A stretch of DNA of 60,622 nucleotides, the filler included. It is 5 parts of 5 records of this genome, joined end to end, with 100 filler letters (N's around TTAATTAATTAA, not from the genome) between each part and the next. Parts side by side here need not be neighbours in the genome. Positions count along the whole stretch, not along the records: positions 1 to 14,918 come from SRR22947725_555; 4 more parts are not named here. One strand, 5' to 3'. Within the stretch, counting starts at the first letter, position 1; each line of letters begins with the position of its first letter. Made by a program: the position numbers and the translations under genes. The notes below the pieces were generated by a model, which worked only from the letters and a program-made list of their open reading frames with translations, searched no databases and was not told where the DNA came from. Below, in pieces: positions 1-15,018 of the stretch.

Positions 1-2
1 CA

Positions 3-677
3 GAAGTTAATATTAATAATAATAACGAGAATAAGGAAAGCTCTGAAAATTCAGATATAAAAAACAACTCTTTGGGCAATAAAGACCCTGAAATAATTCA
101 ATCAGAACAGATAGATGCAAACAAAGATATTTCAAACGACGTATCTAGGTTAGAGGTAGATAATAACGAAAATAACAAAAGCGAAGAGACAAAACAGGCT
201 CTAGATTCAGTTAGAGATGCTGTCTCAAAATCAATAAATAATATTGATAACGGTGTCCAAGAAAACCTAGAAAGAAATGACCCTAACTTAACCAACACTT
301 CTGATATAATATCCAAAGATTTTCAAAAATTTCAAAATATTTTCTCAAATCTATCCGAACTAACTGAGACAGCAATTTACAATACAATACAGAAAAAAAT
401 TATTGAAATTGCTTATGATATAGCAGGTTATCAAATTGATAAAATGCCTGACAAATATGAAAAAAAAATTAAATCATTATTAAAAAATATTAATTGTTTT
501 GAAGATAAAATTACTATTGAAATTAATGAAGAGGATCATCAAGCCATTTCCAAGATAGAAAAATTTAGTGATGGGTTAGATAAATCCATTTTTGTACCTA
601 ACAAAGATCTCTCAAGAGGAGATATTATTTTAAATTGTGATGGTATGCACTACTCAGAAAAAAATATTAATAATTAG
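3..677 (+). CDS. fliH: Flagellar assembly protein FliH (5'-truncated at window edge)
   Basis: Frame is open from position 3. Low-complexity N/E-rich N-terminus; C-terminal FliH-like segment (ITIEINEED...DLSRGDIIL); directly upstream of fliI. Confidence 0.75.
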   Translation, partial: EVNINNNNENKESSENSDIKNNSLGNKDPEIIQSEQIDANKDISNDVSRLEVDNNENNKSEETKQALDSVRDAVSKSINNIDNGVQENLERNDPNLTNTSDIISKDFQKFQNIFSNLSELTETAIYNTIQKKIIEIAYDIAGYQIDKMPDKYEKKIKSLLKNINCFEDKITIEINEEDHQAISKIEKFSDGLDKSIFVPNKDLSRGDIILNCDGMHYSEKNINN

Positions 678-695
678 GTTGGCTAGGGAGAATTA

Positions 696-2015
696 ATGAA
701 TTTCAACGCCAAATTAATAGATAATATTACAAATTTCAAAAGACCAAAGAGAATTACTAGTTCTGGAAGAGTTAACAGGTTTGACGGCAATGTAATTTAT
801 TGTAACCCTTTCCCGGCTCCAATCGGAAGCCTGTGTATTGTTAAAGATCAAATAGGAAAAGAAATTCTAGCAGAGGTCATAAGTTTTGATCAAAATCATA
901 ATATGTTGGCAATATTAGAGCCATCATCACACATTGTAACTGGCTGTGAGGTGTCTTTGCATGACGACGGAAGGTATATTGATATAGATAATACTTTATT
1001 AGGCCGTGTTACTGACGCTTTTGGAAACCCACTTGATGATAAACCATTAGAAAAAATTAATAATAAATGGCCATTAATGGGCAAAGTTATGAACCCTCTC
1101 AAACGAAATTTAATAAAAAAACCGCTAGACGTTGGTGTTAGGGCTATTAATGGTCTTTTAACTGTTGGGCAAGGTCAAAGGTTAGGAATAATAGCTGGAT
1201 CTGGAGTAGGAAAATCTGTTCTTTTAGGAATGATGAGCAAATATACAGAAGCTGATGTAGTTGTAGTTGCTTTGATTGGCGAAAGAGCAAGAGAAGTTGG
1301 CACTATGGTAAACGAATTGTTTCAAGATGAAAGTTCATCAAAAATAAGTGTTGTTGCTGTGCCTGCTGATAGATCTCCCTTGATAAGGATAAGAGCAGCC
1401 AACAGAGCCACAGCAATTGCTGAGTATTTTAGAAGCCAAAATAAAAATGTTTTACTTATAATGGATAGTCTTACCAGGATAGCGCATGCAAAAAGAGAAA
1501 TTGGTTTATCATTGGGAGAACCAACTACTTCTAAGGGATACCCTGCGTCAGTTATATCTATGATACCAAACTTAATAGAAAGATCAGGAACCAATGACGA
1601 GGGTGAAGGAAGTATTACTGCATTTTATACAATTTTAGCTGATGGTGATGATAATAATGACCCTGTTGTTGATACAGCAAGGGCTATACTTGACGGCCAT
1701 ATAGTATTAAGTAGATCAAATGCTCAGATGGGGATTTATCCAGCCATAGATGTTTCACACTCTATAAGTAGAGTTATGAATGACTTAGTTTCTGAGGAAC
1801 ATTTAAATGCCGCAAAGCTATTTAGAAAACATGTTAGTAGTTATATCGAAAACAAAGATTTATTATTAATGGGTGGATATACTCAGGGACAAGATAAAGA
1901 TTTAGATGAAGCTATTTTGATGTGGCCAAAATTGATCGATTATATAACACAATTAAATTCAGACAAAGCTAACTACGAGACTGCCAAATCTGAATTGTTA
2001 AAGCTTTATTCATAG
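696..2015 (+). CDS. fliI: Flagellum-specific export ATPase FliI
   Basis: Walker A AGSGVGKS, LIGERAREV, Walker B LLIMDSLTR, YPAIDV; SD-like GGAG upstream; flagellar context. Confidence 0.95.
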   Translation: MNFNAKLIDNITNFKRPKRITSSGRVNRFDGNVIYCNPFPAPIGSLCIVKDQIGKEILAEVISFDQNHNMLAILEPSSHIVTGCEVSLHDDGRYIDIDNTLLGRVTDAFGNPLDDKPLEKINNKWPLMGKVMNPLKRNLIKKPLDVGVRAINGLLTVGQGQRLGIIAGSGVGKSVLLGMMSKYTEADVVVVALIGERAREVGTMVNELFQDESSSKISVVAVPADRSPLIRIRAANRATAIAEYFRSQNKNVLLIMDSLTRIAHAKREIGLSLGEPTTSKGYPASVISMIPNLIERSGTNDEGEGSITAFYTILADGDDNNDPVVDTARAILDGHIVLSRSNAQMGIYPAIDVSHSISRVMNDLVSEEHLNAAKLFRKHVSSYIENKDLLLMGGYTQGQDKDLDEAILMWPKLIDYITQLNSDKANYETAKSELLKLYS

Positions 2016-2024
2016 GGAATTATA

Positions 2025-2417
2025 TTGGAAAAAAAAATTAAACGTTTTCAAAGGTTGGCAACACTTCAGAAAAGAGATATTTCAAAAAATGTTGCAAATT
2101 CAAATTTGCTTGAGACAGAAATAGTCAAAAATAAAAAACTAATTTCTCAAATAGATGATATTATGGATAATAGCAAAATTGATGGTTCCCAAAATATAAT
2201 AAATTCCGGTTTTTTTAAGAATAATGCTCAATTACTGAGTACATTACAAAGTCAGAAAAATATTGCCAGTAATAGAAATAATTACCTATTAAATGAGCAA
2301 AAAATTGTTAAGAAAAAAATTATAGTCAATCGTTTAAAAAAAATTAAAGCTGAAGAAAAAACTAACGAATATAAACTCATTTATTCTAATGAACTTGAAA
2401 AAAAGAGTTATAATTAA
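2025..2417 (+). CDS. fliJ: Probable flagellar export chaperone FliJ (divergent)
   Basis: 130-aa coiled-coil-like protein between fliI and fliK; TTG start with AGGGA upstream. Positional call. Confidence 0.65.
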   Translation: MEKKIKRFQRLATLQKRDISKNVANSNLLETEIVKNKKLISQIDDIMDNSKIDGSQNIINSGFFKNNAQLLSTLQSQKNIASNRNNYLLNEQKIVKKKIIVNRLKKIKAEEKTNEYKLIYSNELEKKSYN

Positions 2418-2445
2418 TTTTTGTAATGCTACCGTTTTTTGTTAA

Positions 2446-2461
2446 TGGCATTATATTTGCA
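2446..2461 (+). promoter_or_regulatory. Sigma54 (-24/-12) promoter for fliKLMN
   Basis: TGGCATTATATTTGCA with exact GG-N10-GC spacing in the fliJ-fliK intergenic gap. Confidence 0.85.
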
Positions 2462-2488
2462 TTAATCTAAAAAAATACGGAATTCTTT

Positions 2489-3841
2489 ATGAAAATAACC
2501 AACGAAATTAGTAATAACTTCGAATTACTAGCTGGCTCTAAAAATGGAGAAGCTGATCTTTCTATTTTAAGTGGACTATTCAGTATTGATTTTGGTGAAG
2601 GTTCTTTAGATGATAAAGTAAAAAAAAATATAGATGAATTTATCTTTAGTGAAGATAAAATCAAATTTGTTGATTATATTTCAAATATAATACCCATCCT
2701 AGAAAAGGATACAAAAAAACATATCAATTTTGAAACAATTAAAACTCAAATTAGTTTGGATAATTCTATTAAATTAGAAGATAAAGACAGAATTTTACAA
2801 TTTTTAAATCAAGGCAAAAATTATTCAAAAAGTTTTCAGATTAACATGCCACAGCACACTGATAACAAATTAAAAAATAAGACTGTGACTAGTAAATTAC
2901 TAAAGACTAGTAACATTTCATCTAATAATTTAGTTGATCAAAAAAAAATAAACCACAGTCAGCCTATCGATAAAAATATAATTGTTGAGGACATATCAAA
3001 ATATACAAAATCAAACGTTGAGTTAAGTCAATCTCATGAGGTTAATGAAACAAAGATTTTAGATAATAAAAACACTTTTGTTAAAAAAATTAGAAAAAAC
3101 AATTATCCAAATAAAATTTATCAACCACTGAAATCAAAAACATCGCAATTTGATCAATTAAAAGACATGAATTTAGATAAGAAAATTATTATATCTGAAA
3201 ATAATTCTACAATTTCAATGCATAATTATTCTGCTCTAGAAACAATCAAAAAAAATAAAAATGACGTCAAATTAAATAATACCCAATCTTTTAATGTAAA
3301 CATTACAAATCAAACATCCAATCTAGGTCAAAACTTGTCTCATAATAATGATTCATCTTTTTCTAATAATGGTTATAACTCAGTCTTAGAAAATTTGCTC
3401 GATCATCTTGATTTGTCTCAAAAAGGTTGGACGAGTAAATTAGTTTCAAGAATTGAAAACGCTCTGAGTAATGGTGGCGAAGAAATAGAATTCAATTTAA
3501 AACCTAAAAATCTTGGTATGTTGAAAGTATCAGTGAGTCAAAAAAATGGAATGAATACTGTAAAAATTATAGCTGAAAATAGTTTTGTGACGTCCGCATT
3601 GGCTCAAAACGAAAATTATTTGCAGAAATTATTTAATGATCAAGGAATGAATTTGGATTTTACTGCGCAAAACGAAAGTCAGTCATTTGGCTCTAAAAGT
3701 AGTTTTAGTCAAAACTCCAATGAACAACATAAAAATAAGAAAAATGGCCCAGATGAAAAAATTAATCAGATAAATGACAAAAATGACGTAGTTGGTAGCG
3801 AAGATGATTCATCTAGACATATGATTAATGTAATAGCATAA
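2489..3841 (+). CDS. fliK: Flagellar hook-length control protein FliK
   Basis: Long N/S/K-rich disordered region, then C-terminal hook-length domain (IEFNLKPKNLGMLKVSV); position between fliJ and fliL. Confidence 0.85.
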   Translation: MKITNEISNNFELLAGSKNGEADLSILSGLFSIDFGEGSLDDKVKKNIDEFIFSEDKIKFVDYISNIIPILEKDTKKHINFETIKTQISLDNSIKLEDKDRILQFLNQGKNYSKSFQINMPQHTDNKLKNKTVTSKLLKTSNISSNNLVDQKKINHSQPIDKNIIVEDISKYTKSNVELSQSHEVNETKILDNKNTFVKKIRKNNYPNKIYQPLKSKTSQFDQLKDMNLDKKIIISENNSTISMHNYSALETIKKNKNDVKLNNTQSFNVNITNQTSNLGQNLSHNNDSSFSNNGYNSVLENLLDHLDLSQKGWTSKLVSRIENALSNGGEEIEFNLKPKNLGMLKVSVSQKNGMNTVKIIAENSFVTSALAQNENYLQKLFNDQGMNLDFTAQNESQSFGSKSSFSQNSNEQHKNKKNGPDEKINQINDKNDVVGSEDDSSRHMINVIA

Positions 3842-3870
3842 TTGATAACAACCCTATAGCGAGAAGAAAC

Positions 3871-4470
3871 ATGGCAGAAGAAGTTGAAGAAGAACAAAAA
3901 AAAGGTGGTTTAATTAAAATAATCATTTTTGTTGTAGCAGGCATTATGCTGATTGCTGTTGGTTTAGGTATTGGATATTTTATATTTGGTGGAGAACCTG
4001 AACCTGACCCTTCTGCTGAAGTTAATCAAATAATAGAAGGCAAAGAAACAGAAAAAAAAGAAAAAGAAGAAAGTGCTGAAAAAAAAGAGGGTGAAGAAGG
4101 CGAAGAAGGAATAATAACAAAGAATGTTAAAGAGGTTCCAGAGGTTGATGCTTATGAAACCACATATTTTGAATTCCCTGGAGACTTCACAACAAACTTG
4201 AAAGGAAGCCGAAAATTTTTGCAGGTTAGTGTTGGAGTATCAACACAATATGATGAGAAGGTAATGGAAGTGGTTGACTCGCATCAATTAGCTCTGCGAT
4301 CTGAGATATTATCAACCATTAGTGATTTTACAGAAGAAGACATTTCCGGAAGTGACGGTAAGAAGAAATTATCTGATAGATTGATGGTTGTTCTTAATAA
4401 AAAACTGGAGACTTTAAAAGAATTTCCAGGTATTGAAGATGTCTACTTTACTGCGTTTATCCTTCAATAA
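3871..4470 (+). CDS. fliL: Flagellar basal body-associated protein FliL
   Basis: N-terminal TM helix, FTTNLKGSRKFLQVSV, C-terminal IEDVYFTAFILQ. Confidence 0.92.
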   Translation: MAEEVEEEQKKGGLIKIIIFVVAGIMLIAVGLGIGYFIFGGEPEPDPSAEVNQIIEGKETEKKEKEESAEKKEGEEGEEGIITKNVKEVPEVDAYETTYFEFPGDFTTNLKGSRKFLQVSVGVSTQYDEKVMEVVDSHQLALRSEILSTISDFTEEDISGSDGKKKLSDRLMVVLNKKLETLKEFPGIEDVYFTAFILQ

Positions 4471-4484
4471 TCGAGGCCTTAGTT

Positions 4485-5453
4485 ATGTCTAACACGTCAC
4501 GCAAATTATCCTCGGATGAAGTTTCAGCATTAATGGAAGGTCTCCAGTCTGGTGAAATCGATGCTAACTCCGGTTTAAATAATGATGTTGAAGTTACTGA
4601 CTTTACATTTGGTTCTGACAATTTAGAGCTGCTAGGTGATTACTATGCTCTAAGATTAATAAATGAGAGATTTGCTAGGTTGGTTAGAAGTATTTTTTTA
4701 CCGATGATTAGAATTCAGCCAAAAATTAATCCATTTCCACCAGAAGTAAAAACATACGATGAATATAGTGCGGGCCTTAACAGTTTTATGAGTTTAACAA
4801 CTAGTAGGATCGATGAGCTAAGAGGGTCTATGTTACTTGTTTTGGAACCTTCCTTTATTAGTATTTTAACTAACTGTTACTATGGAGGAAAATTAGCAAA
4901 TTTTCCAACAACCAAAGCAGAATTTACTGCAACAGAAGATAGAATTATAGAAATTGTATCAGATGGAATGGGACAATGTTTACAAGCGGCCTGGAAAGAT
5001 CTTATGCCTATTACCATCAAGCATCAAACTCGTGAAATTAATCCACAATTTGCTACTTTAGTAGAAGCCTCAGATTCAGTTATTATTTGTTCTTTTGTAG
5101 TTCAACTCCCTAATATAGATTCTGCTTCTTTTGATATAATTTATCCTCTACAAACATTAAAGCCAATTGCCTCTCTTCTTAGATCTAGAGTTCAATCAGA
5201 TGTGGTAGATGACGATACAAGTTGGAAAGAGAGATTAGAAAAATCAGTTTTAAATGTACCTCTTCCTATTTCCGCTATATTGAGTGAGCCATCCGTACCG
5301 TTATCAAACTTACTTAAATATAAGCCAGGTGATGTTGTTAATTTACCTCCAGTGGATGGCATTGACTTCTTTGTTGATGATAAGCTTTTATTTAAAGCAG
5401 ATATAGGTGAAACAAATGGTCAAGTCGCAGTTAGTTTAAAAAATAAAGTTTGA
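4485..5453 (+). CDS. fliM: Flagellar motor switch protein FliM
   Basis: N-terminal CheY-binding-type motif LSSDEVSALM, EFTATEDRI, EINPQF, C-terminal SpoA domain. Confidence 0.93.
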   Translation: MSNTSRKLSSDEVSALMEGLQSGEIDANSGLNNDVEVTDFTFGSDNLELLGDYYALRLINERFARLVRSIFLPMIRIQPKINPFPPEVKTYDEYSAGLNSFMSLTTSRIDELRGSMLLVLEPSFISILTNCYYGGKLANFPTTKAEFTATEDRIIEIVSDGMGQCLQAAWKDLMPITIKHQTREINPQFATLVEASDSVIICSFVVQLPNIDSASFDIIYPLQTLKPIASLLRSRVQSDVVDDDTSWKERLEKSVLNVPLPISAILSEPSVPLSNLLKYKPGDVVNLPPVDGIDFFVDDKLLFKADIGETNGQVAVSLKNKV

Positions 5454-5471
5454 TATAATTAGGAGAATTTA

Positions 5472-5786
5472 ATGGCAGAAAATGAAACTAAGCCTTCAAG
5501 TGATGAGAATAACACAAATAATTCTGGGATTGATAACCTTAAAGTTCTTGAAAATATTGAAGTTAAACTTACGGTTGAGGTAGGCTCAACAGAATTAAAG
5601 ATAAGGGACCTTTTAAGACTTAATGAAGGTTCTGTTGTTGAATTAGAAAGGTTAGCAGGGGACCCACTTGACATTCTAGCAAATGGCGTAAAAATAGCTA
5701 AAGGTGAGGTTGTTATGGTTGGTGAAAGATTTGGTATTCGTTTTACAGAAGTAACTAACCCAGAGAACCGTGTTCAAAAATTATAA
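5472..5786 (+). CDS. fliN: Flagellar motor switch protein FliN
   Basis: VKLTVEVGSTELKIRDLL...GEVVMVGERFGIRF; AGGAGA SD. Confidence 0.95.
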   Translation: MAENETKPSSDENNTNNSGIDNLKVLENIEVKLTVEVGSTELKIRDLLRLNEGSVVELERLAGDPLDILANGVKIAKGEVVMVGERFGIRFTEVTNPENRVQKL

Positions 5787-5787
5787 T

Positions 5788-5801
5788 TTCAAAAAATTGA
5801 C
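5788..5801 (+). promoter_or_regulatory. Candidate FleQ-type enhancer box
   Basis: TTCAAAAAATTGAC, 2 mismatches to the Pseudomonas FleQ consensus GTCAnTAAAtTGAC, about 55 nt upstream of a sigma54 promoter. Confidence 0.4.
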
Positions 5802-5853
5802 GTTTTAAAATTAATAAAATATAGTTAAATCAATAGTTTAAGTGCTGAAATAA

Positions 5854-5870
5854 TTGGCATCATTCTTGCT
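5854..5870 (+). promoter_or_regulatory. Sigma54 (-24/-12) promoter for fliOPQR-flhB
   Basis: TTGGCATCATTCTTGCT with GG-N10-GC spacing in the fliN-fliO intergenic region. Confidence 0.85.
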
Positions 5871-5899
5871 TCTTTTGTCTAACCATAAAGGAAGTAATT

Positions 5900-6331
5900 A
5901 TGTCACAAACAGTCCCAGATTTTAGCACAGCTATAGTAACAATCTTATTTTTGCTGGTATTAGGTATTGTTGCCTTTATCATTAAGAAAAAAAGTGGACC
6001 ACTAAAAAGAATAATTAAAAATCAAAATAATCTCGAGGTTATTAATCAATTACCTCTTAGAGACGGCTATTTAGCCTACATACTTAAAGTTGGTAATGAA
6101 AATTTTTTCTTTGTGGGTCATAAATCTGGAAGAGGCTCGTTAACACAAATTAATAGCTTGAAAGATGTTGAGCCTCAATTCCAAAAAAATAAAATAGAAA
6201 AACTTTCTATAAATAATAACAGTTCTTCTGAAAAAAAAATCATACATAAAACTGAAGACAAAAAACCTCTTCAACATGTAAATATTTCTGACTTATTAAC
6301 AGCTCATAAAAAGGGAAATAGAGATGCGTAA
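5900..6331 (+). CDS. fliO: Flagellar biosynthesis protein FliO
   Basis: N-terminal TM helix then LEVINQLPL...ILKVGNENFFFVG; position before fliP. Confidence 0.75.
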   Translation: MSQTVPDFSTAIVTILFLLVLGIVAFIIKKKSGPLKRIIKNQNNLEVINQLPLRDGYLAYILKVGNENFFFVGHKSGRGSLTQINSLKDVEPQFQKNKIEKLSINNNSSSEKKIIHKTEDKKPLQHVNISDLLTAHKKGNRDA

Positions 6332-7166
6332 AGCAATTTGCCCACAGCCAGAGAAGAGAGTTTTTTTTATTAAAAATAGATTTCAATCAATGGATAAATT
6401 AAAAAATTTTATGAAACTTATTTCTTTTTCAGCAGCTATTTTATTAATAACAGGTATGTCTACAAATGCTTTTGGTGAAACATTTACATCAGGGTTCCCA
6501 GCATTAAATGTATCAACTAATGGGAATACAACTGAATACTCATTTCCTTTACAAATTTTATTGTTAATGACCGCTTTGACTGTTTTACCATCTTTAGTTC
6601 TTGGGATGACAAGCTTTACAAGAATTATAATAGTGATGTCAATTCTACGTCAAGCACTAGGAACTCAACAAACACCACCTAACCAAGTTCTAATAGCTAT
6701 ATCTTTATTCCTTACATTTTTCATAATGGCACCAACATTTAACAAAGTATATGATAACGCAGCAGCTCCTTACATGGATAAAACTTTGCCTGCTGACAAA
6801 GCCCTTGAAACTGCTAGTGCTGAAATGAAAAGCTTCATGGTTAAAAATACCAGGAAGAGCGACCTAGTTATGTTTTCCGAATTAGCTGGTTTAGAAAAGT
6901 TTGATAAAGTTTCTGACATACCATTCAGAATTGCTTTGCCGGCTTTTATGACCAGTGAACTTAAGACAGCTTTTCAAATAGGTTTTTTGCTATTCTTGCC
7001 ATTTCTCGTAATTGATATGGTTATTTCATCTATATTAATGTCATTAGGAATGATGATGTTATCTCCAATGTTAGTTGCACTTCCTTTTAAACTTTTACTT
7101 TTTGTTTTAGTAGATGGTTGGAGTATGACGGTTGGCTCTTTAGTTAGTACATTTGCAGCAGGATAA
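6324..7166 (+). CDS. fliP: Flagellar export gate protein FliP (start could be 6390 or 6411)
   Basis: MTSFTRIIIV, QQTPPNQVL, SELKTAFQIGF, GMMMLSP, LFVLVDGW. Confidence 0.96.
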   Translation: MRKAICPQPEKRVFFIKNRFQSMDKLKNFMKLISFSAAILLITGMSTNAFGETFTSGFPALNVSTNGNTTEYSFPLQILLLMTALTVLPSLVLGMTSFTRIIIVMSILRQALGTQQTPPNQVLIAISLFLTFFIMAPTFNKVYDNAAAPYMDKTLPADKALETASAEMKSFMVKNTRKSDLVMFSELAGLEKFDKVSDIPFRIALPAFMTSELKTAFQIGFLLFLPFLVIDMVISSILMSLGMMMLSPMLVALPFKLLLFVLVDGWSMTVGSLVSTFAAG

Positions 7167-7171
7167 ATATT

Positions 7172-7444
7172 ATGAGCTTTGATGAGAATATAAGCATGTT
7201 AAGTATGGCCTTTTATCAAGTCTTACTTGTGTCTGGACCAATCCTTATTCTTGCACTAGGCATTGGTCTTTTTATTGGAATAATTCAAGCAGCAACTTCT
7301 ATTAACGAGATGACACTTAGCTTTGTTCCTAAAGTTATAGTTGTCATGTTGGGAATTGGATTATTAGGTAATTTTTTTATGATGGGCCTAGTAGAGTATT
7401 TTAATTTCATTTTTGATCAGGTCGCTGGCGTTGGACAAAACTAA
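7172..7444 (+). CDS. fliQ: Flagellar export gate protein FliQ
   Basis: QAATSINEMTLSFVPK signature. Confidence 0.95.
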   Translation: MSFDENISMLSMAFYQVLLVSGPILILALGIGLFIGIIQAATSINEMTLSFVPKVIVVMLGIGLLGNFFMMGLVEYFNFIFDQVAGVGQN

Positions 7445-7461
7445 GTTGGAAAGTTTACATT

Positions 7462-8274
7462 ATGAGTTCTACAGCTTTAAGTTTACCAGGAATTGACTTA
7501 TTCAATTTATATCAGTATCTAGTAATTTTTTTTATTGCATCTTTAAGAATTTCCTCATTTTTAATTAGCGCCCCGTTTTTTTCGTTAGGCGGTATTCCCT
7601 TACAGGTAAGAATTGTAGCTGGTATTAGTCTTACAGCTTTTTTGTTCCCTGTAATCAAAGTTCCTGATTTACAAACCATTCCAGGTTTTAATTTATTTAT
7701 AATAATATTATCAGAAATAGGAATTGGTTTATCAGTTGGACTTATCTTAACTATCATATTTTCAGCAGCAGCAGTAGCAGGAGAAAAAATTGCTTCTACT
7801 GCAGGATTATCTATGTCAAGTATGATTGATCCTCAATCTGGAGGACAGACACTTGTTTTAAGTACTGTGTTAATATTGTTTTTAATTTCATGTTTTTTAT
7901 CTCTAGATGGTCATTTGTTCATAATTAAAATGTTATTGGAAAGTTATGTATATTTACCCATTGGATTAAGTATTAATTTTTTCCAAGCAAGTAATATAGC
8001 TATAGATACTTTTGGAGATATGCTTTATCTAGCAGCGCTTATTAGCTTGCCGGTTGTGGGTGGTTTATTATTAATACAGGCGTCAATTGGCGTGATTACT
8101 AGATCTGCTCCATCTTTAAACCTTTTTTCATTTGGTTTTCCAATAGCACTAATTGCAGTTTTTGTTTTTTTATATGCTGGGGTAGGACCTATTTCAGATG
8201 CATTTTCAGATTTAACGGGTACAGGAATAAACTTAATAGAAGAAGTACTTCAATCATATCAAAAGAGAAATTAA
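7462..8274 (+). CDS. fliR: Flagellar export gate protein FliR
   Basis: Multi-TM; GLSMSSMIDP, LDGHL, RSAPSLNLFSFGFP. Confidence 0.94.
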   Translation: MSSTALSLPGIDLFNLYQYLVIFFIASLRISSFLISAPFFSLGGIPLQVRIVAGISLTAFLFPVIKVPDLQTIPGFNLFIIILSEIGIGLSVGLILTIIFSAAAVAGEKIASTAGLSMSSMIDPQSGGQTLVLSTVLILFLISCFLSLDGHLFIIKMLLESYVYLPIGLSINFFQASNIAIDTFGDMLYLAALISLPVVGGLLLIQASIGVITRSAPSLNLFSFGFPIALIAVFVFLYAGVGPISDAFSDLTGTGINLIEEVLQSYQKRN

Positions 8275-8277
8275 AAA

Positions 8278-9435
8278 ATGGCTGAAGAAGATAATTCACA
8301 GGATAAAACCGAAGAACCATCCCAACGGAAATTAGATAAAGCAGCAGAAGATGGTCAAGTTTTAACATCAAAAGAAATGTTTGTATTTACAACATTGATT
8401 ATGGGACTTATGGTACTCACTTCTATTCCTTTTTTTGCTCAAGAATTTTTAGCAATATGGAAAAATTTTTTCTTATTTGATTTGAATTATATAATAAATG
8501 TTTCACCCTATTCGGGTTTAGGAAAAATGATAAAGTATGTCATTTATATAACTTTGATAGTCGGCGTTCCATTGATAATCACTATATTAATAACTCAAAT
8601 GGCAATGGGAGGAATAAATTTTGCTCCTAAAGGTTTTTATTTTAAGTCTAATAGAATTAATTTATTATCTGGGCTAAAAAGAATTTTTTCATCAAAGGGG
8701 TTGGTTGAGTTAATTAAATCCTTATTCAAAGTAGGTCTTTTAGGAGGGATTACTTTTGGCGTTATATACTTAAATATTAAAGATATAATATATCTGTCTG
8801 AAAGAAATCTGTATACCGCACTATCAAATCTCTTAGATAATTTTCCACAATTGACAATTTCATTATTAATAGCCCTTGGTTTTATAGCTATTTTTGATTT
8901 TATTTGGCAAAAATATACGCATATAGAAAAACTAAAAATGACAATTAAAGAGGTAAAGGACGAGCATAAAGACAGTGACGGTTCCCCAGAGGTTAAACAA
9001 AAAATTAGGAAGTTACAAAACGAAATTTCTAATAGGGCTGCCACACAAACTGCAGCCCTTGATAATGTTCAGGATGCCTCAGCCATAATCACTAATCCAA
9101 CTCATTTTGCTGTTGCTATTAAGTATGAAGTAGGTGAAAGCGGAGCTCCTGTAATTCTTGCCATGGGTAGGGGAATGATAGCTGAAAAAATTATTAAATT
9201 AGCTGATGATAATAAAATAACCGTTTTCCAAAGCCCTTTATTGGCTAGAGCGCTATATTTTACTGGTGAAATAGGTAAAGAAATATCAGAAAACTTATAT
9301 TCAGCTGTGGCTTCTGTATTAGCCTATATCTTTAAAATTGAAAGAGGTGAAGAAACTGATTATCCTGATTTTGAAATACCAGAGGAAATGGCATTTGATG
9401 AATATGGAAAAAAATTAAATAAGGATCAAGAATGA
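8278..9435 (+). CDS. flhB: Flagellar export specificity switch FlhB
   Basis: KTEEPSQRKL N-terminus, DGSPEVK, NPTH autocleavage site, PLLARALY. Confidence 0.96.
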   Translation: MAEEDNSQDKTEEPSQRKLDKAAEDGQVLTSKEMFVFTTLIMGLMVLTSIPFFAQEFLAIWKNFFLFDLNYIINVSPYSGLGKMIKYVIYITLIVGVPLIITILITQMAMGGINFAPKGFYFKSNRINLLSGLKRIFSSKGLVELIKSLFKVGLLGGITFGVIYLNIKDIIYLSERNLYTALSNLLDNFPQLTISLLIALGFIAIFDFIWQKYTHIEKLKMTIKEVKDEHKDSDGSPEVKQKIRKLQNEISNRAATQTAALDNVQDASAIITNPTHFAVAIKYEVGESGAPVILAMGRGMIAEKIIKLADDNKITVFQSPLLARALYFTGEIGKEISENLYSAVASVLAYIFKIERGEETDYPDFEIPEEMAFDEYGKKLNKDQE

Positions 9436-9662
9436 GTGTAAGAAGAAAAAAATCATTTGGTCAAATAGTTATAACTGCCATGTTTTTCTGGTCAGCCTTG
9501 TTATGCCACTTTGAGGCCAGTTCTCTTAAGGAGCAAGGTGATTTATTAAATGCATATTTATATTGGTTTTTTGGTTTTACAGCAATTCTTGGAGGTTTCA
9601 GGTTTAAAATAGCTGAATTAATTTATGGGTTAATTGATTTTATAAATAAAAATAAAAAATAG
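9432..9662 (+). CDS. Small two-TM membrane protein, translationally coupled to flhB
   Basis: ATGA overlap with the flhB stop; two hydrophobic segments. Confidence 0.6.
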   Translation: MSVRRKKSFGQIVITAMFFWSALLCHFEASSLKEQGDLLNAYLYWFFGFTAILGGFRFKIAELIYGLIDFINKNKK

Positions 9663-9670
9663 TTTAAATT

Positions 9671-9862
9671 ATGAATATAAAAAAAAATAATAAAAAAATA
9701 GTAACATGTAACGGGTGTTTATATTTCTTTGTTACTTACAAAAAAGAAAGACCCTGGGGCTGTAAAAAATTTGGTTTTATTTCAAAATTTTTACCAGCAA
9801 GAGAAGTATTTAGCACAACTGGTATAGAATGTGCATATAGAACTGAGAAAATTTCTAATTAA
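9671..9862 (+). CDS. Small four-cysteine putative metal-binding protein
   Basis: CNGCLYFFVTY...PWGCKKFGF...TGIECAY pattern (CxxC-x14-C-x22-C). Confidence 0.7.
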   Translation: MNIKKNNKKIVTCNGCLYFFVTYKKERPWGCKKFGFISKFLPAREVFSTTGIECAYRTEKISN

Positions 9863-9899
9863 TTTGTCTGTAAATTTTTAATATTTGTAAGGTTTAAAA

Positions 9900-10613
9900 A
9901 TGGATACAAAAATGGAAGCTGTTCAAGAAAGCATCAAACTAGCTTTAGATGCTGCAGATGCAGCTACTGATGTAACATCAGAATATAATAAAGTTAAAAA
10001 AGCTCATGCATTATTGGAGGCTAAAGTGAAACAAATTCATAAGTATACTACAGTTGTATTTCTATCTTCTATTGTGTCAGGCTTAGCTGTTATTATATTT
10101 AGTGCAATTTTATTTATGCAGTCTTCAAATAAACTTACTAATATGACAGAAACTAGTAGAGAAGCTCTTGTAGTTTTTGCAGAAAATGTTGATGGCGTTA
10201 ATGCTTCATTAAAAAATCTTGATACAGCAATTAAAAAACAAGGTGACTTATTAGAAATTAATGAAAAACTAGTTATTACGCTTGATAAAATAGAAAAAAG
10301 AGTCCAGAAATCAAATGAAAACACAGTCGGAGAATTACAACTAATAACTAAGACTTTGATAGATGAAATAAGTAAAAACACGCAAGCTAATATTGACAAT
10401 AACAAAAAACTTAATGCCAATTTAGAAAAACTAAACAAATCAAATAGTAGGACAATTTCTAAAGCAATTCAGCAAATAAGTAATAAGGCAATTTATAAAC
10501 AAATAGTTGCTAATCAAGCAATACAGGCGCAACAAATTTCAAAACTTGTAAAGCAGAATAATAGTGTTTTAGGAAAAATTGCAGATAAAACAAGCAGGAT
10601 TAAATATCCTTGA
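9900..10613 (+). CDS. Bitopic coiled-coil membrane protein; candidate MotF-like motor component
   Basis: 237 aa, single TM at about residues 52-73, long heptad-rich C-terminal region, just downstream of flhB. Confidence 0.55.
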   Translation: MDTKMEAVQESIKLALDAADAATDVTSEYNKVKKAHALLEAKVKQIHKYTTVVFLSSIVSGLAVIIFSAILFMQSSNKLTNMTETSREALVVFAENVDGVNASLKNLDTAIKKQGDLLEINEKLVITLDKIEKRVQKSNENTVGELQLITKTLIDEISKNTQANIDNNKKLNANLEKLNKSNSRTISKAIQQISNKAIYKQIVANQAIQAQQISKLVKQNNSVLGKIADKTSRIKYP

Positions 10614-10626
10614 TAAATATTAATTT

Positions 10627-11361
10627 ATGGATAAAAAAATGGATGATGAAAATCTTTCTGACCAAGCTACTGACCAAAAAAAATTTTTACAAATAAAATC
10701 AATTAGAACTTCATCGAATGCTTTTTTAATGAAGCTAAAAGAAGGCGATATATTAATTGCATTAGATGGAAAAGAAGTTCATCAATCTTATGAAGATTTG
10801 TCTAAGGAATTAAAAGAAATAAAGGAAAGAAAAGTACTCACTTTATGCAGAGAAGGGGTTTTCTTTAATACGTTTGTTGAAGGTTCTTTAGGAGTGATTT
10901 GTGAACAAGTCGAATATGATAAAGTGCCTGAACTCAATAACTTTAAACTAAATGATTTTTTTAAATCAGATGTACTTTATCATCAATATGAATTATTTAA
11001 AAAACCTGAATCAATAGCAATTTTACTTAATACATCACCAACAATACTTGCTAGTCTAGCACCACCACTTTGGATGATTCAAAATCGGTTGTGGACATTA
11101 TTTTCTATCACTATGTTATTTTATTTTTTTCTTTTTATGATTTCTCCATGGTTATTTTTTATAGGTTGGATATTGAAATCTTGGTATGTAGGAACTTCAC
11201 AAGTAGATATTTTAAGGCTTTTTTATAGACTTGGAAATTATAGACTAAGTTCAATTTTTTGTGCAGAAAGTGAAAAAGAGGCCCAAGAATTATCTAGAAA
11301 ATTTGATAACAAAATTGATTTTTATTATTCTTATTTAGAACCAGCTATTTTAGAAGATTAA
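10627..11361 (+). CDS. PDZ-like domain fused to a membrane domain (DUF2628-like)
   Basis: SSNAFLMKLKEGDILIALDGKEV resembles a PDZ core; C-terminal PPLWMIQNRLW plus TM helices. Confidence 0.55.
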   Translation: MDKKMDDENLSDQATDQKKFLQIKSIRTSSNAFLMKLKEGDILIALDGKEVHQSYEDLSKELKEIKERKVLTLCREGVFFNTFVEGSLGVICEQVEYDKVPELNNFKLNDFFKSDVLYHQYELFKKPESIAILLNTSPTILASLAPPLWMIQNRLWTLFSITMLFYFFLFMISPWLFFIGWILKSWYVGTSQVDILRLFYRLGNYRLSSIFCAESEKEAQELSRKFDNKIDFYYSYLEPAILED

Positions 11362-11371
11362 TTTTGAAAAA

Positions 11372-12079
11372 CTAACTGCTATTAGCCTTTATGACTTCAC
11401 CTTTATAAATTTTATCGCTAAATATCTCATTTATTATCAATTTTGCAACATGAATTGGCTTGTTTAAATTTTTTGATCCCTCACCTGGCATTGCTATTTT
11501 TCTCATTGGTGTATCGGTTTTCCCAGGGTCAATTATAGAAATAGATAGGTTATTATGTTTATTTTCTAATGCCCATATCTTAACTATATGTTCAAGAGCT
11601 GCCTTTGAAACAGAATAAGCTCCCCAAAATGGTTTAGGTTTGCTAGCTAAAGAAGAACTCAAAAATAATGCTTTTGGTTTTTTACTATTTTTTAATAATG
11701 CATCAAATGAACGTATTAATCTATGGTTACTTATTGCATTAATATTTAAAACTTCTATAAATTCTTCGTTAATTTGATGATGAATGGGGCCTAAGGTGCC
11801 TAGAGTAGCTGCGTTTGAAATCATAATATCTAACTTTTTCCACCTTTTAAAGATCTCCATTCCCAATCTGTCAATACCTAAAAAATCTTTCATATCTAAT
11901 TGAGCAACGGTACAAGTTCCATTATTGGACAAAATAGCGTCTTCGGTTTTTTTAAGACCTGATAAGTTTTTATCAGTAATTATTGTATGTATATTTTTCT
12001 GGGCTAATTGTTGAGCTGTTTCTGCTCCAATACCACTGCCGGCTCCAGTGATTAAGGCATTTAATTTATTTTCAGTCAT
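11372..12079 (-). CDS. Short-chain dehydrogenase/reductase (YciK-like)
   Basis: TGAGSGIG, YSVSK catalytic motif, DPGKTDT; overlaps the purF end. Confidence 0.9.
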   Translation of the reverse strand: MTENKLNALITGAGSGIGAETAQQLAQKNIHTIITDKNLSGLKKTEDAILSNNGTCTVAQLDMKDFLGIDRLGMEIFKRWKKLDIMISNAATLGTLGPIHHQINEEFIEVLNINAISNHRLIRSFDALLKNSKKPKALFLSSSLASKPKPFWGAYSVSKAALEHIVKIWALENKHNNLSISIIDPGKTDTPMRKIAMPGEGSKNLNKPIHVAKLIINEIFSDKIYKGEVIKANSS

Positions 12080-13496
12080 TCGTCTTTGAGTTTATTTTAA
12101 GTATCTCTGAAACATCTATTGGATAGTCACCAGTAAAACAATGGTCTGTAAATTGAGGTGACTTAGTATTTCTTTCATTAAAACCCATAGCTTTATAAGT
12201 GCCATTTAAGGATAAGAAAAACAGTGAATTTGCACCTACGATTTTAGTCATTTCTTCTAGGTTAAATTTAGAAGCTATTAACTCACTATAATTGGGCGTA
12301 TCAATGCCATAGAAATCAGGATGTTTTATTGGTGGGCATGATATACCCAAATGTACTTCTTTAGCTCCTGCTTCAAAAACCATTTTTACAATTTTATTTG
12401 CGGTAGTTCCTCTTACTATTGAATCATCAATAAGAATTACTCTTTTGTTTTCAATACATGATTTATTTACGCTATGCTTAAGTTTCACGCCAAATTGTCT
12501 AATTGTTTGTGAAGGTTCAATGAAAGTACGTCCAACATAATGACTTCTTATTATTCCTAACTCAAATGGTATAGATGATTTTTGGGAGAACCCAATGGCT
12601 GCCGAAACACCAGAATCTGGTATAGGCACAATTACATCTGCGGATATTTTGTTTTCTATAGCTAGTTGTTCGCCTAAAGATTTTCTATAAGTATAAACAG
12701 TTTTGTTATCGACTATACTGTCGGGACTAGCAAAATAAATCCGCTCAAAAATACAAGGCCTTTCTGGTATTTTGTTTAAAGGTTTGATAGATTCAATACC
12801 ATTATCAGTAATGACAACTATCTCTCCATTTTCAACATCCCGAATGTATTTAGCTCCAATCATATCTAATGCACATGTTTCTGAAGCTAATACTGGTGAA
12901 CCGTTTTTATCACCCAAAACCAGTGGTCTGATACCCAAGGGGTCTCTTACACCAATAAGCTTCTTATTCGTTAGAATAATAAGAGAGTAAGCTCCTTGAA
13001 TTTGAGAAAGGGCATCTGTAAGTTTATCAATTAATTTTTTTTTTCTAGATCTTGCCACTAATTGAAGTATTATTTCTGTGTCTGAAGAAGTTTGAAAAAT
13101 TGATCCACTCTCAACTAATTGTTTTTTAATTGAGAAAGTATTAGTTAGATTACCATTGTGAGCACAAGCAAAGCCTCCCATTGCTAGGTTTGCAAATAGA
13201 GGCTGTAAATTTTCTGGTTTTGATTCTCCTGTTGTAGAATAACGAACATGGCCAATTGCAGTTTTTCCAGGAAGTTGAGATAATATATCAGTGTTATTAA
13301 AATTATCTCCTACTAATCCTTGCTTTCTTACGGAGTGAAAATTTCGACCATCAAAACTAACTATTCCCGCACCTTCTTGTCCTCTATGTTGGAGTGAGTG
13401 AAGTCCAAGAGTAGTTAGCACAGAAGCTTCCTCTGTTCCAAATATGCCAAATACACCGCACTCATCTTTAATTCGGTCTGTATATTTGCAATACAT
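12072..13496 (-). CDS. purF: Amidophosphoribosyltransferase
   Basis: Propeptide then CGVFG, QHRGQE, GHVRYST, HNGNL, PRPP loop LIDDSIVRGTT. Confidence 0.97.
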   Translation of the reverse strand: MYCKYTDRIKDECGVFGIFGTEEASVLTTLGLHSLQHRGQEGAGIVSFDGRNFHSVRKQGLVGDNFNNTDILSQLPGKTAIGHVRYSTTGESKPENLQPLFANLAMGGFACAHNGNLTNTFSIKKQLVESGSIFQTSSDTEIILQLVARSRKKKLIDKLTDALSQIQGAYSLIILTNKKLIGVRDPLGIRPLVLGDKNGSPVLASETCALDMIGAKYIRDVENGEIVVITDNGIESIKPLNKIPERPCIFERIYFASPDSIVDNKTVYTYRKSLGEQLAIENKISADVIVPIPDSGVSAAIGFSQKSSIPFELGIIRSHYVGRTFIEPSQTIRQFGVKLKHSVNKSCIENKRVILIDDSIVRGTTANKIVKMVFEAGAKEVHLGISCPPIKHPDFYGIDTPNYSELIASKFNLEEMTKIVGANSLFFLSLNGTYKAMGFNERNTKSPQFTDHCFTGDYPIDVSEILKINSKTND

Positions 13497-13521
13497 TAAT
13501 TCTGCCTTATAAATAGTTAAT

Positions 13522-14043
13522 CTAAATTTTTTGTTCTTTTGTGACTATAACGTCTTCATCTAAGAAAATTTCTTTCAAAATATCACCAATATTATCTAGG
13601 TAATGAAAAGAGTATGCCTCAAGAAGCCATTCTGGCAAATTTTCACCTACTAAATACTTAAAGCCTAAAAATAATAAAACAACAATTAAAACTCCACGAA
13701 AAGCACCAAAAATAAAGCCAATCAATTTATCAAATAATAACACTTCGGATGTATTAAATTTTGGTGATAACCATGTTGTAATTAAGTGACAAACAAACAA
13801 AGAGGTTAAGAATGGAACTGCAAAAGCAACAACATCTATAATAATTTTTTGAGTAACGTATTCAGATATAATAATTCTAAATTTATCAAAGAAGTTAAAT
13901 GCTATTACAATTGAAAACACCCAAGAAAGTACGCTAAAAATTTCTTTAACAAAACCTCTAAAGGCAGCAACGACACAAGATGTTAATATAATGGATATTA
14001 TTAGAATATCTATTCCATTAAAAATATTATTTAAGAAGTCCAT
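13522..14043 (-). CDS. cvpA: CvpA (colicin V production) family membrane protein
   Basis: RGFVKE, DKLIGFIFGAFRG; canonical position upstream of purF. Confidence 0.9.
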   Translation of the reverse strand: MDFLNNIFNGIDILIISIILTSCVVAAFRGFVKEIFSVLSWVFSIVIAFNFFDKFRIIISEYVTQKIIIDVVAFAVPFLTSLFVCHLITTWLSPKFNTSEVLLFDKLIGFIFGAFRGVLIVVLLFLGFKYLVGENLPEWLLEAYSFHYLDNIGDILKEIFLDEDVIVTKEQKI

Positions 14044-14047
14044 TGAT

Positions 14048-14918
14048 TTAATTTGCCTCAGAGTTCTTGCTAATTAGTTCAACTAGGTCTTTTAACAGTG
14101 CAACATTATTATAACTCATGTTTTTATTATCTATAACTTTTTGCTTTATGGGAAGGGTAAAACTATCGAAACCTAATTTAAAAGCTTCTTTAATTCTTAA
14201 TTCTGGTTGGGTAACTTTTCTAACTTCACCTGACAATCCAATTTCACCAAAAAAAACACTTTTTTCATCTATTGCAATATTCTTTACTGAAGAGATTATC
14301 GCCGCCGCAACAGCCAAATCAGCAGCAGGCTCAAAAATCTTTATACCTCCAACTATATTTAAGAAAATATCCATATTAGATAAATGAATTTTGCATCTTG
14401 CTTCTAAGACTGCACACAACATAGAAAGTCTTGAAATATCCCAACCAACAATTGTTCTTCTTGGAGAGGCTAGTGATGATGGGGTAACAAGCGCTTGAAT
14501 TTCAACGAGTATTGGTCTTGTGCCCTCAAGGCCAGCAAAAACAGCGTTACCAGGAATATTTTTTTGTCGATCAAGTAAAAACAATGAGGAAGGATTTGAA
14601 ATCTCTTTTAGTCCATTAGATAACATTTCAAAAACACCAATTTCATTAGTAGGTCCAAATCTATTTTTAATGCTTCTTAAAATACGAAACTGAAAATTAT
14701 TATCACCTTCAAAATACAGAACTGTATCTACCATATGTTCTAAGACTCTTGGACCAGCAATATTTCCATCTTTAGTAACATGTCCAATTAAAATTAGAAT
14801 AGTATTAGTTTTTTTTGCAGCAATTATTAATTCATGAGTAGTGGCCCTTACCTGAGACACTGTCCCTGGAGCACTATCTAATTGGGGCAAATACATTGTT
14901 TGAATTGAGTCAACAACA
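14048..14918 (-). CDS. radA: DNA repair protein RadA/Sms (5' part lost at contig end)
   Basis: VVDSIQT, GHVTKDG, KNRFG motif, Lon-like C-terminal domain (GEIGLSGEVR). Confidence 0.95.
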
Positions 14919-15018
14919 NNNNNNNNNNNNNNNNNNNNNNNNNNNNNNNNNNNNNNNNNNNNTTAATTAATTAANNNNNNNNNNNNNNNNNNNNNNNNNN
15001 NNNNNNNNNNNNNNNNNN
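14919..15018. other. Artificial contig spacer
   Basis: 44 N + TTAATTAATTAA (stops in six frames) + 44 N. Confidence 0.98.

Follow-up and report, generated by a model that had tools for sequence, protein, structure and literature searches.

A Fla1-like flagellar gene cluster linked to housekeeping genes in an AT-rich marine alphaproteobacterium, probably of the SAR116 lineage

Introduction

The DNA analysed here (hereafter the window, meaning the whole stretch of 60,622 bases) is a concatenation of five contigs, the first of which, contig A (1-14918; GC 0.308, i.e., 30.8%), carries a large flagellar gene cluster together with housekeeping genes; the finding described below spans contig A exactly. 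We conclude that contig A is very probably a genuine chromosomal piece from a host of the SAR116 lineage, and that it encodes the export-apparatus and switch half of that host's sole flagellar system, a member of the Fla1 family that has been inherited within the lineage. This host is a marine alphaproteobacterium with AT-rich DNA (GC content 30%) and a genome of roughly 2 Mb; the label Puniceispirillales is also attached to its lineage. An earlier reading made from the letters of this DNA alone (the original prediction) had proposed an old Fla1-type flagellar system of gammaproteobacterial derivation, residing in an alphaproteobacterium from groups usually considered non-motile.

The flagellar gene cluster and its physical linkage

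On its + strand, contig A presents the gene order fliH-I-J-K-L-M-N-O-P-Q-R-flhB, followed by four conserved open reading frames (ORFs). The cluster opens with fliH (3-677; PF02108, E 3.1e-6), whose 5' end is cut by the start of the window and whose missing part is found on a 99%-identical contig, G042:C110, of a metagenome-assembled genome (MAG; L112:2-394). It is followed by the gene for the flagellar export ATPase, fliI (696-2015), which scores 548 bits with TIGR03496 (FliI_clade1), the best of the three FliI clade models, and also exceeds the cut-off of TIGR01026. The next ORF (2025-2417; 130 aa) finds no family match and is called fliJ by position only: its product is charged and helical, and its place between fliI and fliK is that of Salmonella fliJ and of an Octadecabacter hypothetical protein. 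Thereafter come fliK, for hook-length control (2489-3841; PF02120, E 3.1e-13), fliL (3871-4470; PF03748, E 3.3e-19), fliM (4485-5453; TIGR01397, 264.5 bits) and fliN (5472-5786; TIGR02480, 104.9 bits), the latter two scoring above the cut-offs of their models. The assignment of fliO (5900-6331) is weak, with E 1.3e-4 and a score below the cut-off of TIGR03500; its product has an N-terminal transmembrane (TM) segment, and the gene precedes fliP (6324-7166; TIGR01103, 259 bits, above cut-off). The set is completed by fliQ (7172-7444; PF01313, E 4.6e-23), fliR (7462-8274; TIGR01400, 171.5 bits, above cut-off) and flhB (8278-9435; PF01312, E 2.9e-100; TIGR00328, 343 bits against a cut-off of 349). 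The intergenic spacers of contig A are mostly shorter than 30 nt, and all 16 frames of the flagellar side are open and of conserved length relative to those of relatives. The contiguous fliHIJKLMNOPQR-flhB cluster of the original prediction is thus borne out by the ORFs and their family matches, with fliJ recognized by its position and fliO weakly.

Downstream lies a block of housekeeping genes on the - strand: a YciK-like short-chain dehydrogenase (SDR; 11372-12079; PF00106, with NF006509 below cut-off), purF (12072-13496; TIGR01134, 473 bits, above cut-off), cvpA (13522-14043; PF02674, E 5.4e-28) and radA (14048-14896). The last is cut by the contig end at 14918 and retains the C-terminal 282 aa (positions 182-452 of the 454 in the TIGR00416 model); its N-terminal part is present on G042:C110 (L113:14535-15032). 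It had been claimed that the flagellar cluster directly abuts SDR-purF-cvpA-radA. The tightness of the junction stands, the two sides converging across 10 nt; however, the neighbour of the SDR gene is u244 (ending at 11361), and four ORFs separate flhB from the housekeeping side.

To place this arrangement, we scanned species-representative genomes for FliP and took the best 80 of 590 confirmed relatives. The top match, L021, lies on the 47.5-kb MAG contig G042:C110 (labelled 'uncultured Alphaproteobacteria bacterium'), and all 14,918 bases of contig A are 99% identical to G042:C110:15035-29953. The whole fliH-to-radA order, inclusive of the four ORFs, recurs at 75-77% nucleotide identity on two contigs of single-cell genomes (L022 and L023), which bear the labels 'Alpha proteobacterium SCGC AAA536-K22' (210 kb, GC 0.308) and 'SAR116 cluster ... 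AG-892-O07'; because single-cell contigs show it, this linkage is not a binning artefact. The junction is also bridged by a 6,699-nt contig of the DNA run X2 (covering 8165-14863 with 12 differences) and by a 1,286-nt contig of X12 (covering 11113-12398 with none), and the stretch 10400-12400 is present at a 0.96 share of its words in 13 DNA runs of 10 studies. Since independent metagenome contigs bridge it, there is no misjoin at 11361/11372, and the fault near 11365 that the original prediction had wished to see checked is absent: the junction is reproduced in the MAG contig, the two single-cell contigs and contigs of two unrelated metagenome runs. A few 'joints' seen in metagenome contigs have sides of 20-21 letters and occur in single contigs; we took them as cross-matches rather than rearrangements. 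Beyond radA, G042:C110 continues with mlaE, alr, dnaB, rplI-rpsR-rpsF, fabD-fabG-acpP-fabF, mltG, gmk, ksgA and pdxA, i.e., plain core chromosome.

Identity of the host

PurF was sought in 30 named genomes with related flagellar clusters and found in 28; its identity to the PurF of the window is 49-89% in 15 alphaproteobacterial genomes and 36-41% in 13 gamma- and betaproteobacterial (gamma/beta) genomes. A PurF tree of 28 rows, from which the near-identical G042 row was left out, splits the 15 alphaproteobacterial rows from the 13 gamma/beta rows with a support of 100 on either side, and unites the window, AAA536-K22 and SAR116 AG-892-O07 in a clade that likewise has a support of 100 (support values here and below are those of the Shimodaira-Hasegawa-like approximate likelihood-ratio test, SH-aLRT). 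These identities and this split confirm the alphaproteobacterial host. A protein 96% identical to the product of u237, one of the four ORFs after flhB, carries the name of a 'Candidatus Puniceispirillales bacterium' as its source. The order-level name of the host, which rests on the labels given by depositors and on one housekeeping protein, PurF, is tentative.

The placement of the host in groups usually considered non-motile did not hold, as the closest genomes are labelled SAR116 and flagellar genes have already been published from that lineage: flagellar assembly and motility genes are reported as enriched in SAR116 (PMC10703444), and motility contigs have been assigned to it (PMC6040077). 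In the literature that we searched, outside of which lie most subscription journals, we found no statement that the SAR116 system is of the Fla1/fla3 type.

Kinship of the flagellar proteins

The FliP of the window is 59-89% identical to those of genomes labelled SAR116, PS1 and Puniceispirillum, 61-67% identical to those of the Rhodobacterales loci in the Fla1-like clade (65% for the Octadecabacter arcticus plasmid) and 49-59% identical to those of gammaproteobacterial genomes (52% for Salmonella). Identity is 48% to the Acetobacter plasmid cluster, 43-45% to the Sulfitobacter and Loktanella plasmid clusters, and 39% and 34%, respectively, to the second FliP of Thalassovita and that of Rhodobacter sp. 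In a FliP tree of 86 rows (quick search), the Fla1-like clusters with alphaproteobacterial hosts form a clade of 27-28 rows (support 95) among gamma/beta rows, and four native-type alphaproteobacterial rows fall outside on long branches (support 97). A first tree of seven proteins (FliI, M, N, P, Q, R and FlhB; 1855 columns), built from 34 of the 86 loci so as to span the groups, recovers the alphaproteobacterial Fla1-like clade (18 of the 34 rows) at a support of 100, as sister to 15 gamma/beta rows (support 89). A second seven-protein tree of 25 rows adds two native alpha-type clusters, taken from annotated genes, and an actinobacterial outgroup; under a site-heterogeneous model the native alpha-type rows split off first, the gamma/beta rows and the Fla1-like clade group together (support 100), and the Fla1-like clade itself, with 13 of the 25 rows, again has a support of 100. 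Forcing all the systems with alphaproteobacterial hosts into one clade costs 21.7 log-likelihood units and is rejected by the approximately unbiased (AU) test (p 0.013).

Two expectations of the original prediction are thereby upheld. The first is the Fla1-like nature of the system: the fully supported clade includes Rhodobacterales fla3-type clusters such as that of the Octadecabacter arcticus plasmid, and it has been described that Octadecabacter carries a sole fla3 superoperon and that the type-3 cluster encodes the Rhodobacter sphaeroides flagellum first described as 'fla1' (PMC5030684). The second is the incongruence between flagellar and housekeeping trees, PurF being alphaproteobacterial and the flagellar proteins being nearer to gamma/beta than to native alphaproteobacterial systems. 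The further claim of derivation from gammaproteobacteria fares less simply: the greater nearness to gamma/beta stands, but the trees set the Fla1-like clade next to the sampled gamma/beta rows, in a sister or polytomy position, and not within them. A gammaproteobacterial origin of the flagellar system is therefore consistent with the data without being proven by the trees.

The closest known system is the R. sphaeroides Fla1/fla3-type system, represented in our comparisons by plasmid pOA238_118 of Octadecabacter arcticus 238 (L145) and by four Rhodobacterales genomes. The two share fleQ divergent from fleT-fliE-F-G-H-I-J, the order fliK-L-M-N-(O)-P-Q-R-flhB with homologous unnamed ORFs after it, a FleT-like activator without a helix-turn-helix (HTH) domain, sigma54 motifs, FlgT, a MotA-like gene beside rpoN, and membership of a common clade. 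Unlike the Rhodobacterales with fla3-type clusters, the present host is a pelagic organism with a GC content of 30% and a roughly 2-Mb genome, in which this is the sole system with no second, CtrA-type set. Unlike the R. sphaeroides Fla1 system, moreover, the related genomes G042 and G043 have a single rpoN with no dedicated paralogue, flhA-flgT and rpoN-motA lie at other loci, and the cluster is split over several loci. The protein identities to the fla3-type systems are only 39-67%, as measured against Rhodobacterales representatives and not against R. sphaeroides.

The polar clusters of gammaproteobacteria (Vibrio, Shewanella, Aeromonas, Alteromonas and Methylophaga) and the fliE-R genes of Salmonella have the same fliEFGHIJ-fliKLMNOPQR order, and the likeness to them extends to the FliP identity, the FliI_clade1 model as best match, the sister or polytomy position in the trees, and FlgT, which is common to Vibrio-type motors (PMC7277832). 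What sets the present system apart from them is the alphaproteobacterial PurF, the four-gene module after flhB and the FleQ/FleT pair. The native alphaproteobacterial clusters (the plasmids of Sulfitobacter sp. SK025 and Loktanella salsilacus, and the second FliP of Thalassovita and that of Rhodobacter sp.) have the same core proteins in an alphaproteobacterial host; however, their genes are arranged as flhA-fliR-flhB / fliM-fliL / fliF-fliH-fliN-fliP-fliG, with flaF and flbT, and these CtrA-type clusters stand apart on long, supported branches with FliP identities of 34-45%. Gene order, FliP identity (34-48% over the native type as a whole), the trees and the AU test speak against membership in the native, CtrA-type group.

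Sigma54 motifs and the missing half of the system

Two exact sigma54-type -24/-12 promoter motifs of the form TGGCAT-N5-TTGC lie on the + strand of contig A, namely TGGCATTATATTTGC (2446-2460), 29 nt before fliK, and TGGCATCATTCTTGC (5855-5869), 31 nt before fliO. They are the sole zero-mismatch matches to TGGCAYN5TTGC in the whole window, and the two largest gaps on the + strand hold one each. When up to one mismatch is allowed, the same pattern gives 11 matches against 5.5 expected in the window, and a looser TGGC-N8-TGC pattern gives 6 against 3.0. The motif before fliK is kept 22-44 nt upstream of that gene in L021, L022, L023, L028 and L031, and the one before fliO is kept 43-46 nt upstream in L021-L024 and L026; a motif upstream of the fliO/fliP position also occurs in L027, L040, L041 and L145. 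A possible third motif, TGGTATAGAATGTGC (9820-9834, + strand), weaker and degenerate, lies 66 nt before u237, and many relatives, including the Octadecabacter plasmid, have TGGCA(T/C)-N5-TGTGC 69-155 nt before their u237 homologue. We regard the motifs before fliK and fliO, and the weaker one before u237, as predicted sigma54-dependent promoters. R. sphaeroides has promoters at the first two of these places, before fliK and fliO. The sigma54 sites of the original prediction are thus recovered as exact motifs that sit at the same places in relatives.

The rest of the system can be read from the 99%-identical MAG contig and from relatives. On G042:C110 and on the single-cell contig G043:C1, fliE-fliF-fliG lie directly upstream of fliH. 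They are preceded by a gene for a FleT-like protein of 398-414 aa with a Sigma54_activat domain and no HTH_8 at E 1e-5; divergent from it is a gene for a FleQ-like protein of 375-380 aa that combines Sigma54_activat (an AAA+ domain) with HTH_8. With the activator encoded before fliE in Octadecabacter, the FleT-like protein shares 51% identity, and with its own FleQ-like paralogue 44%. This matches the description of R. sphaeroides, where FleQ has a DNA-binding domain and FleT is without one, and where the fliEFGHIJ operon opens with fleT (PMC7277832, PMC11999139). Farther along G042:C110 and the single-cell contig are fliS, several flagellins, fliD and hook-associated genes. Beside fliD and fliS, the flagellins are very long (588-1007 aa; L115:5130-8153, L115:8216-10441, L115:11775-13784 and L112:7538-9304), and upstream on the single-cell contig there are two giant ORFs of about 1,690 and 2,130 aa (L114:304-5388 and 9173-15574).

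All six related genomes searched have rpoN, in one copy each apart from two in IMCC14465, and all six have flhA; in five of them, including G042 and G043, flhA is accompanied by a gene with FlgT_N (PF16548, above cut-off). FlgT is described as the H-ring protein of the R. sphaeroides system (PMC7277832). In all six genomes a MotA-like gene, scoring below the model cut-off, lies within 1.5-2 kb of rpoN, as it does on the Octadecabacter plasmid (contigs G042:C53, G043:C3, G044:C9, G045:C3, G053:C172 and G057:C7; loci L149-L154 and L169-L172). In IMCC14465, which has the second rpoN, the rpoN copy next to motA is found some 5 kb downstream of flhB. The search for fleQ, rpoN, fliC and motAB that the original prediction had called for thus succeeded outside contig A, with fleQ and flagellins on G042:C110 and rpoN and a MotA-like gene elsewhere; contig A itself holds none of them. 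A locus-borne second rpoN (rpoN2) may be particular to R. sphaeroides and not general to the family.

By analogy with R. sphaeroides, we infer activity of these promoters within a regulatory cascade. A FleQ-like enhancer-binding protein would, together with sigma54, switch on fleT-fliEFGHIJ; FleQ and the HTH-less FleT would then fire the sigma54 promoters before fliK, before fliO and probably before u237. The products would be the hook-length ruler, FliL, the C-ring proteins FliM and FliN, and the export gate formed by FliOPQR and FlhB. The clade-specific module would be made as well, with u237 probably serving as the stator-activating protein MotF and u244 as a PDZ membrane protein, and the cells would presumably swim.

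A four-gene module after flhB

The four ORFs that follow flhB on the + strand encode, in order, a small membrane protein of 76 aa (u76; 9432-9662) and a small four-cysteine protein of 63 aa (u63; 9671-9862), both without a family match, a bitopic coiled-coil membrane protein (u237; 9900-10613), which is a candidate homologue of MotF, and a PDZ-domain membrane protein of 244 aa (u244; 10627-11361), with a weak match to PF17820. Profiles built from their homologues and run against 84 loci matched 20 ORFs for u76, 19 for u63, 22 for u237 and 22 for u244. The matches all follow flhB immediately and keep the same order, and all belong to Fla1-like loci with alphaproteobacterial hosts; among these are Octadecabacter, Paracoccaceae, Rhodobacter sp., Thalassovita and a contig that was binned with Flavobacteriaceae (L044). 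Within the flanks searched, the module was not found in 54 other loci of L046-L100, in two native alpha-type loci or in Salmonella. The L044 contig, from a MAG labelled Flavobacteriaceae (GC 0.409), has an alphaproteobacterial Fla1-like cluster with all four module ORFs and falls inside the alphaproteobacterial clade of the FliP tree; mis-binning in that public MAG is the probable explanation. The u63 protein, whose four cysteines are C13, C16, C31 and C54, is conserved in 19 alphaproteobacterial Fla1-like loci and may be a zinc-ribbon miniprotein.

The u237 protein, of 237 aa, has a TM segment at about residues 50-73, and its structural model is all-helical, with one long helix and a predicted template modelling score (pTM) of 0.27, i.e., a coiled coil only. 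For plausible start codons, the homologues after flhB in the Octadecabacter, Paracoccaceae, Rhodobacter sp. and Rhodobacterales rows have their TM segment starting at about residue 53. According to its published description, MotF is bitopic, has a mass of 24 kDa, a TM segment spanning residues 54-74 and a periplasmic C-terminal part, and is 'restricted' to some Rhodobacteraceae (PMC7277832). The likeness in size and TM position to this published description of MotF, rather than to its sequence, inclines us to see in u237 a MotF homologue, though with no great assurance. There are 2,928 metagenome homologues of u237, the top 120 of which are at least 95% identical, suggesting purifying selection in an abundant population; in the ESM Atlas, u237 retrieves 'hypothetical protein' clusters only. 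For u244, the model (predicted local distance difference test, pLDDT, 90.2) starts with a PDZ domain, continues as a helical hairpin in the membrane and ends in a small domain; the PDZ domain resembles those of RseP, Nas2 and MucP (TM-score 0.62-0.70 on the target, root-mean-square deviation 2.1-2.7 A, Foldseek E 1.4e-3 and weaker). This module, linked to a predicted sigma54 motif, with a MotF-like protein and found only in Fla1-like loci with alphaproteobacterial hosts, is a modest addition to what is known of the family.

Inheritance of the system and alternative explanations

One FliP is present in each of G042-G045. The FlhB type of contig A occurs in 44 of 61 relatives of the single-cell genome G043, and never with a second, native-type FlhB; 27 genomes have it at 82-100% identity and 16 at 48-53%, and one further genome has gene fragments only. 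GC is 0.304 in the flagellar part of contig A versus 0.322 in its housekeeping part, and both GC and GC at third codon positions (GC3) are unchanged across the junction. The single FliP and FlhB, the wide conservation and the lack of a contrast in GC or GC3 thus mark the flagellar system as the lineage's own, old and only flagellum. The notion of an old and compositionally ameliorated system is accordingly sustained. A distinctive acquisition by this organism is not supported; this is a single flagellar system conserved across the lineage.

Several points weigh against this reading. The window itself is without fleQ, fleT, fliEFG, the rpoN of the host, flhA, flgT, motAB and flagellins, all of which had to be read from the 99%-identical contig and from relatives. 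In G042, G043, G044, G053 and G057, the one rpoN lies outside the flagellar locus, with no dedicated paralogue. The trees all come from quick searches, with SH-aLRT as their only measure of support; many of their rows deviate in amino-acid make-up, and the gammaproteobacteria sampled are those with the best FliP matches only. In the second seven-protein tree, native alpha-type rows and outgroup come together on long branches, as a warning of the program pointed out, and the gamma/beta affinity could in part be due to long-branch attraction. Membership in the Fla1 family rests on named Rhodobacterales clusters that were typed by a paper, not on R. sphaeroides sequences. PurF, for its part, puts the clade of the window beside IMCC14465, a member of the PS1 clade, and a Rhizobiales-labelled MAG (support 95), and not beside Puniceispirillum. 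Finally, motility is undocumented for this low-GC clade, HIMB100 being described as having 41 COG-N genes with 'motility unknown' (PMC3368413).

The alternative that survives best, which we nonetheless hold to be unlikely, is that the Fla1-like clade is an old, vertically inherited alphaproteobacterial lineage, its gamma/beta look arising from fast-evolving CtrA-type systems being drawn to the outgroup. The meeting of long branches just mentioned is what it would lead one to see, and it accords with the monophyly of the alphaproteobacterial Fla1-like clade on a long stem (1.02-1.14), as sister to or in a polytomy with gamma/beta rather than nested; with the spread of the clade over rows labelled Rhizobiales, Rhodospirillaceae, Rhodobacterales, PS1 and SAR116; with markers peculiar to the clade, namely the way fleT is placed and the four genes that follow flhB; and with a published statement that fla3 was recruited 'from other alphaproteobacterial orders' (PMC12363192). 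However, the AU test speaks against a single clade of all systems with alphaproteobacterial hosts, and the union of gamma/beta with the Fla1-like clade is fully supported under the very model that allows for site heterogeneity. Moreover, Salmonella has the very same fliEFGHIJ-fliKLMNOPQR order, from which the clusters of Sulfitobacter and Loktanella depart; other descriptions of FlgT come from Vibrio, Aeromonas and Pseudoalteromonas (PMC7277832); and the published view is that of a transfer from an ancestral gammaproteobacterium (PMC7277832).

It is improbable that a streamlined genome here retains the cluster only as a decaying relic from which no flagellum is built any more. Such decay would fit the undocumented motility of the clade, the description of Octadecabacter strains with a sole fla3 cluster as non-motile (PMC5030684), and the lack of an FlhB match in 17 of the 61 relatives, though many of those assemblies are small. 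Against it stand the open frames of conserved length, the kept promoter motifs, the abundant near-identical homologues of u237 and contigs in metatranscriptomes. These contigs, from two metatranscriptome libraries, lie over fliL-fliP and u237-u244 and are no proof of transcription; those of the RNA libraries that start at 9839 (X16) and 9863 (X14) do so just downstream of the putative u237 promoter, at differing sites, and contigs do not show transcript starts.

A recent horizontal acquisition by this organism, in the form of a genomic island, is more improbable still. Clusters of the fla3 type are reported to move among Rhodobacterales, one of them borne on a plasmid (PMC12363192), and the adjacency to purF is limited to the closest relatives, with no SDR gene or purF after u244 in L024 and L026 within the DNA searched. 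Yet among the 44 relatives with the cluster's FlhB the identity falls stepwise from 100% to 48%, the flagellar and PurF identities to L022/L023 are alike (86-89% vs 87-89%), there is no compositional contrast, these are the only FliP and FlhB copies, and no mobile-element genes were found in 1-14918 or in 32 kb of the G042:C110 flanks. As for an artefact of assembly or binning, whether through the fusion of a gammaproteobacterial fragment to the alphaproteobacterial housekeeping side near 11365 or through a contaminant contig, the window does mix contigs of different organisms, one matching a genus without FlhB and another having a deviating SecA and GC content (see below), but this mixing concerns contigs other than contig A, whose join recurs in the MAG, single-cell and unrelated metagenome contigs without a change in GC or GC3, and we give the artefact practically no credence.

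The remaining contigs of the window

The five contigs of the window are split by four artificial spacers of 100 bases, each of the form N44-TTAATTAATTAA-N44, which have no strand and are not biology (14919-15018, 31527-31626, 41870-41969 and 53703-53802). Besides contig A, they are contig B (15019-31526; GC 0.298), contig C (31627-41869; GC 0.281), contig D (41970-53702; GC 0.386) and contig E (53803-60622; GC 0.290). By their matches, the five contigs appear to derive from at least three different source organisms, and the assembly behind them is either a mixed bin or was never binned. Contig B matches G001:C54:51883-68391 at 99% identity, with other sequence following on G001:C54 at both ends. 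FlhB is found in none of the 25 genomes of the genus of G001, which are 1.2-1.4 Mb in size, and the radA and purF of G001 are only 70-72% identical to those of contig A, in short stretches. We had considered whether contig A comes from a flagellate member of this genus, and rejected it; only contig B matches G001.

On contig B lie genes for a sensor kinase cut at its 5' end (15082-16212) and for an NtrX-like regulator that scores below the model cut-off (16190-17431), as well as rpoN (20615-21922) and genes for an oligopeptidase A and a KefB/C-like transporter. Because the contigs are from different organisms, this rpoN and the ntrY/ntrX pair cannot be used as context for the flagellar host. 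No close match of contigs C and D was found to G001/G002 or to the relatives of contig A. Contig D, where GC rises to 0.386, encodes a SecA of 1120 aa that gives its best and full-length score with NF009536, and it also holds lnt and a gene for a MATE transporter. Such SecA proteins are typical of Bacteroidota, and contig D is probably from another phylum. Rfam and tRNA scans of the window gave no matches.

Implications

Flagellar genes of SAR116 are already in print and the Fla1/fla3 family is well described; the find is in this respect sound but fairly ordinary. It nevertheless places an abundant, AT-rich marine lineage with genomes of about 2 Mb, whose proteins recur at 95% identity or more in ocean metagenomes, among the potentially motile bacteria, and shows which kind of motor is concerned: one controlled by sigma54 and FleQ-FleT and equipped with FlgT, which is known in detail only from R. 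sphaeroides. It yields concrete predictions for regulators, promoters and stator helpers that bear on SAR116 cultures and metatranscriptomes. The range of the Fla1/fla3 family, with the FleT arrangement and the candidate MotF module, is widened to pelagic alphaproteobacteria in which it is the sole flagellum, and this in turn bears on the origin of the Rhodobacterales clusters. We tentatively suggest, as a reading that stops short of being the probable one, that Fla1/fla3 may be the sole, vertically kept flagellum of a broad pelagic radiation of alphaproteobacteria (SAR116, PS1 IMCC14465 and 'Rickettsiales' MED) with its own module; MotF would then not be specific to Rhodobacteraceae, and this radiation, rather than a gammaproteobacterium directly, would be a possible source of the fla3 clusters of Rhodobacterales.

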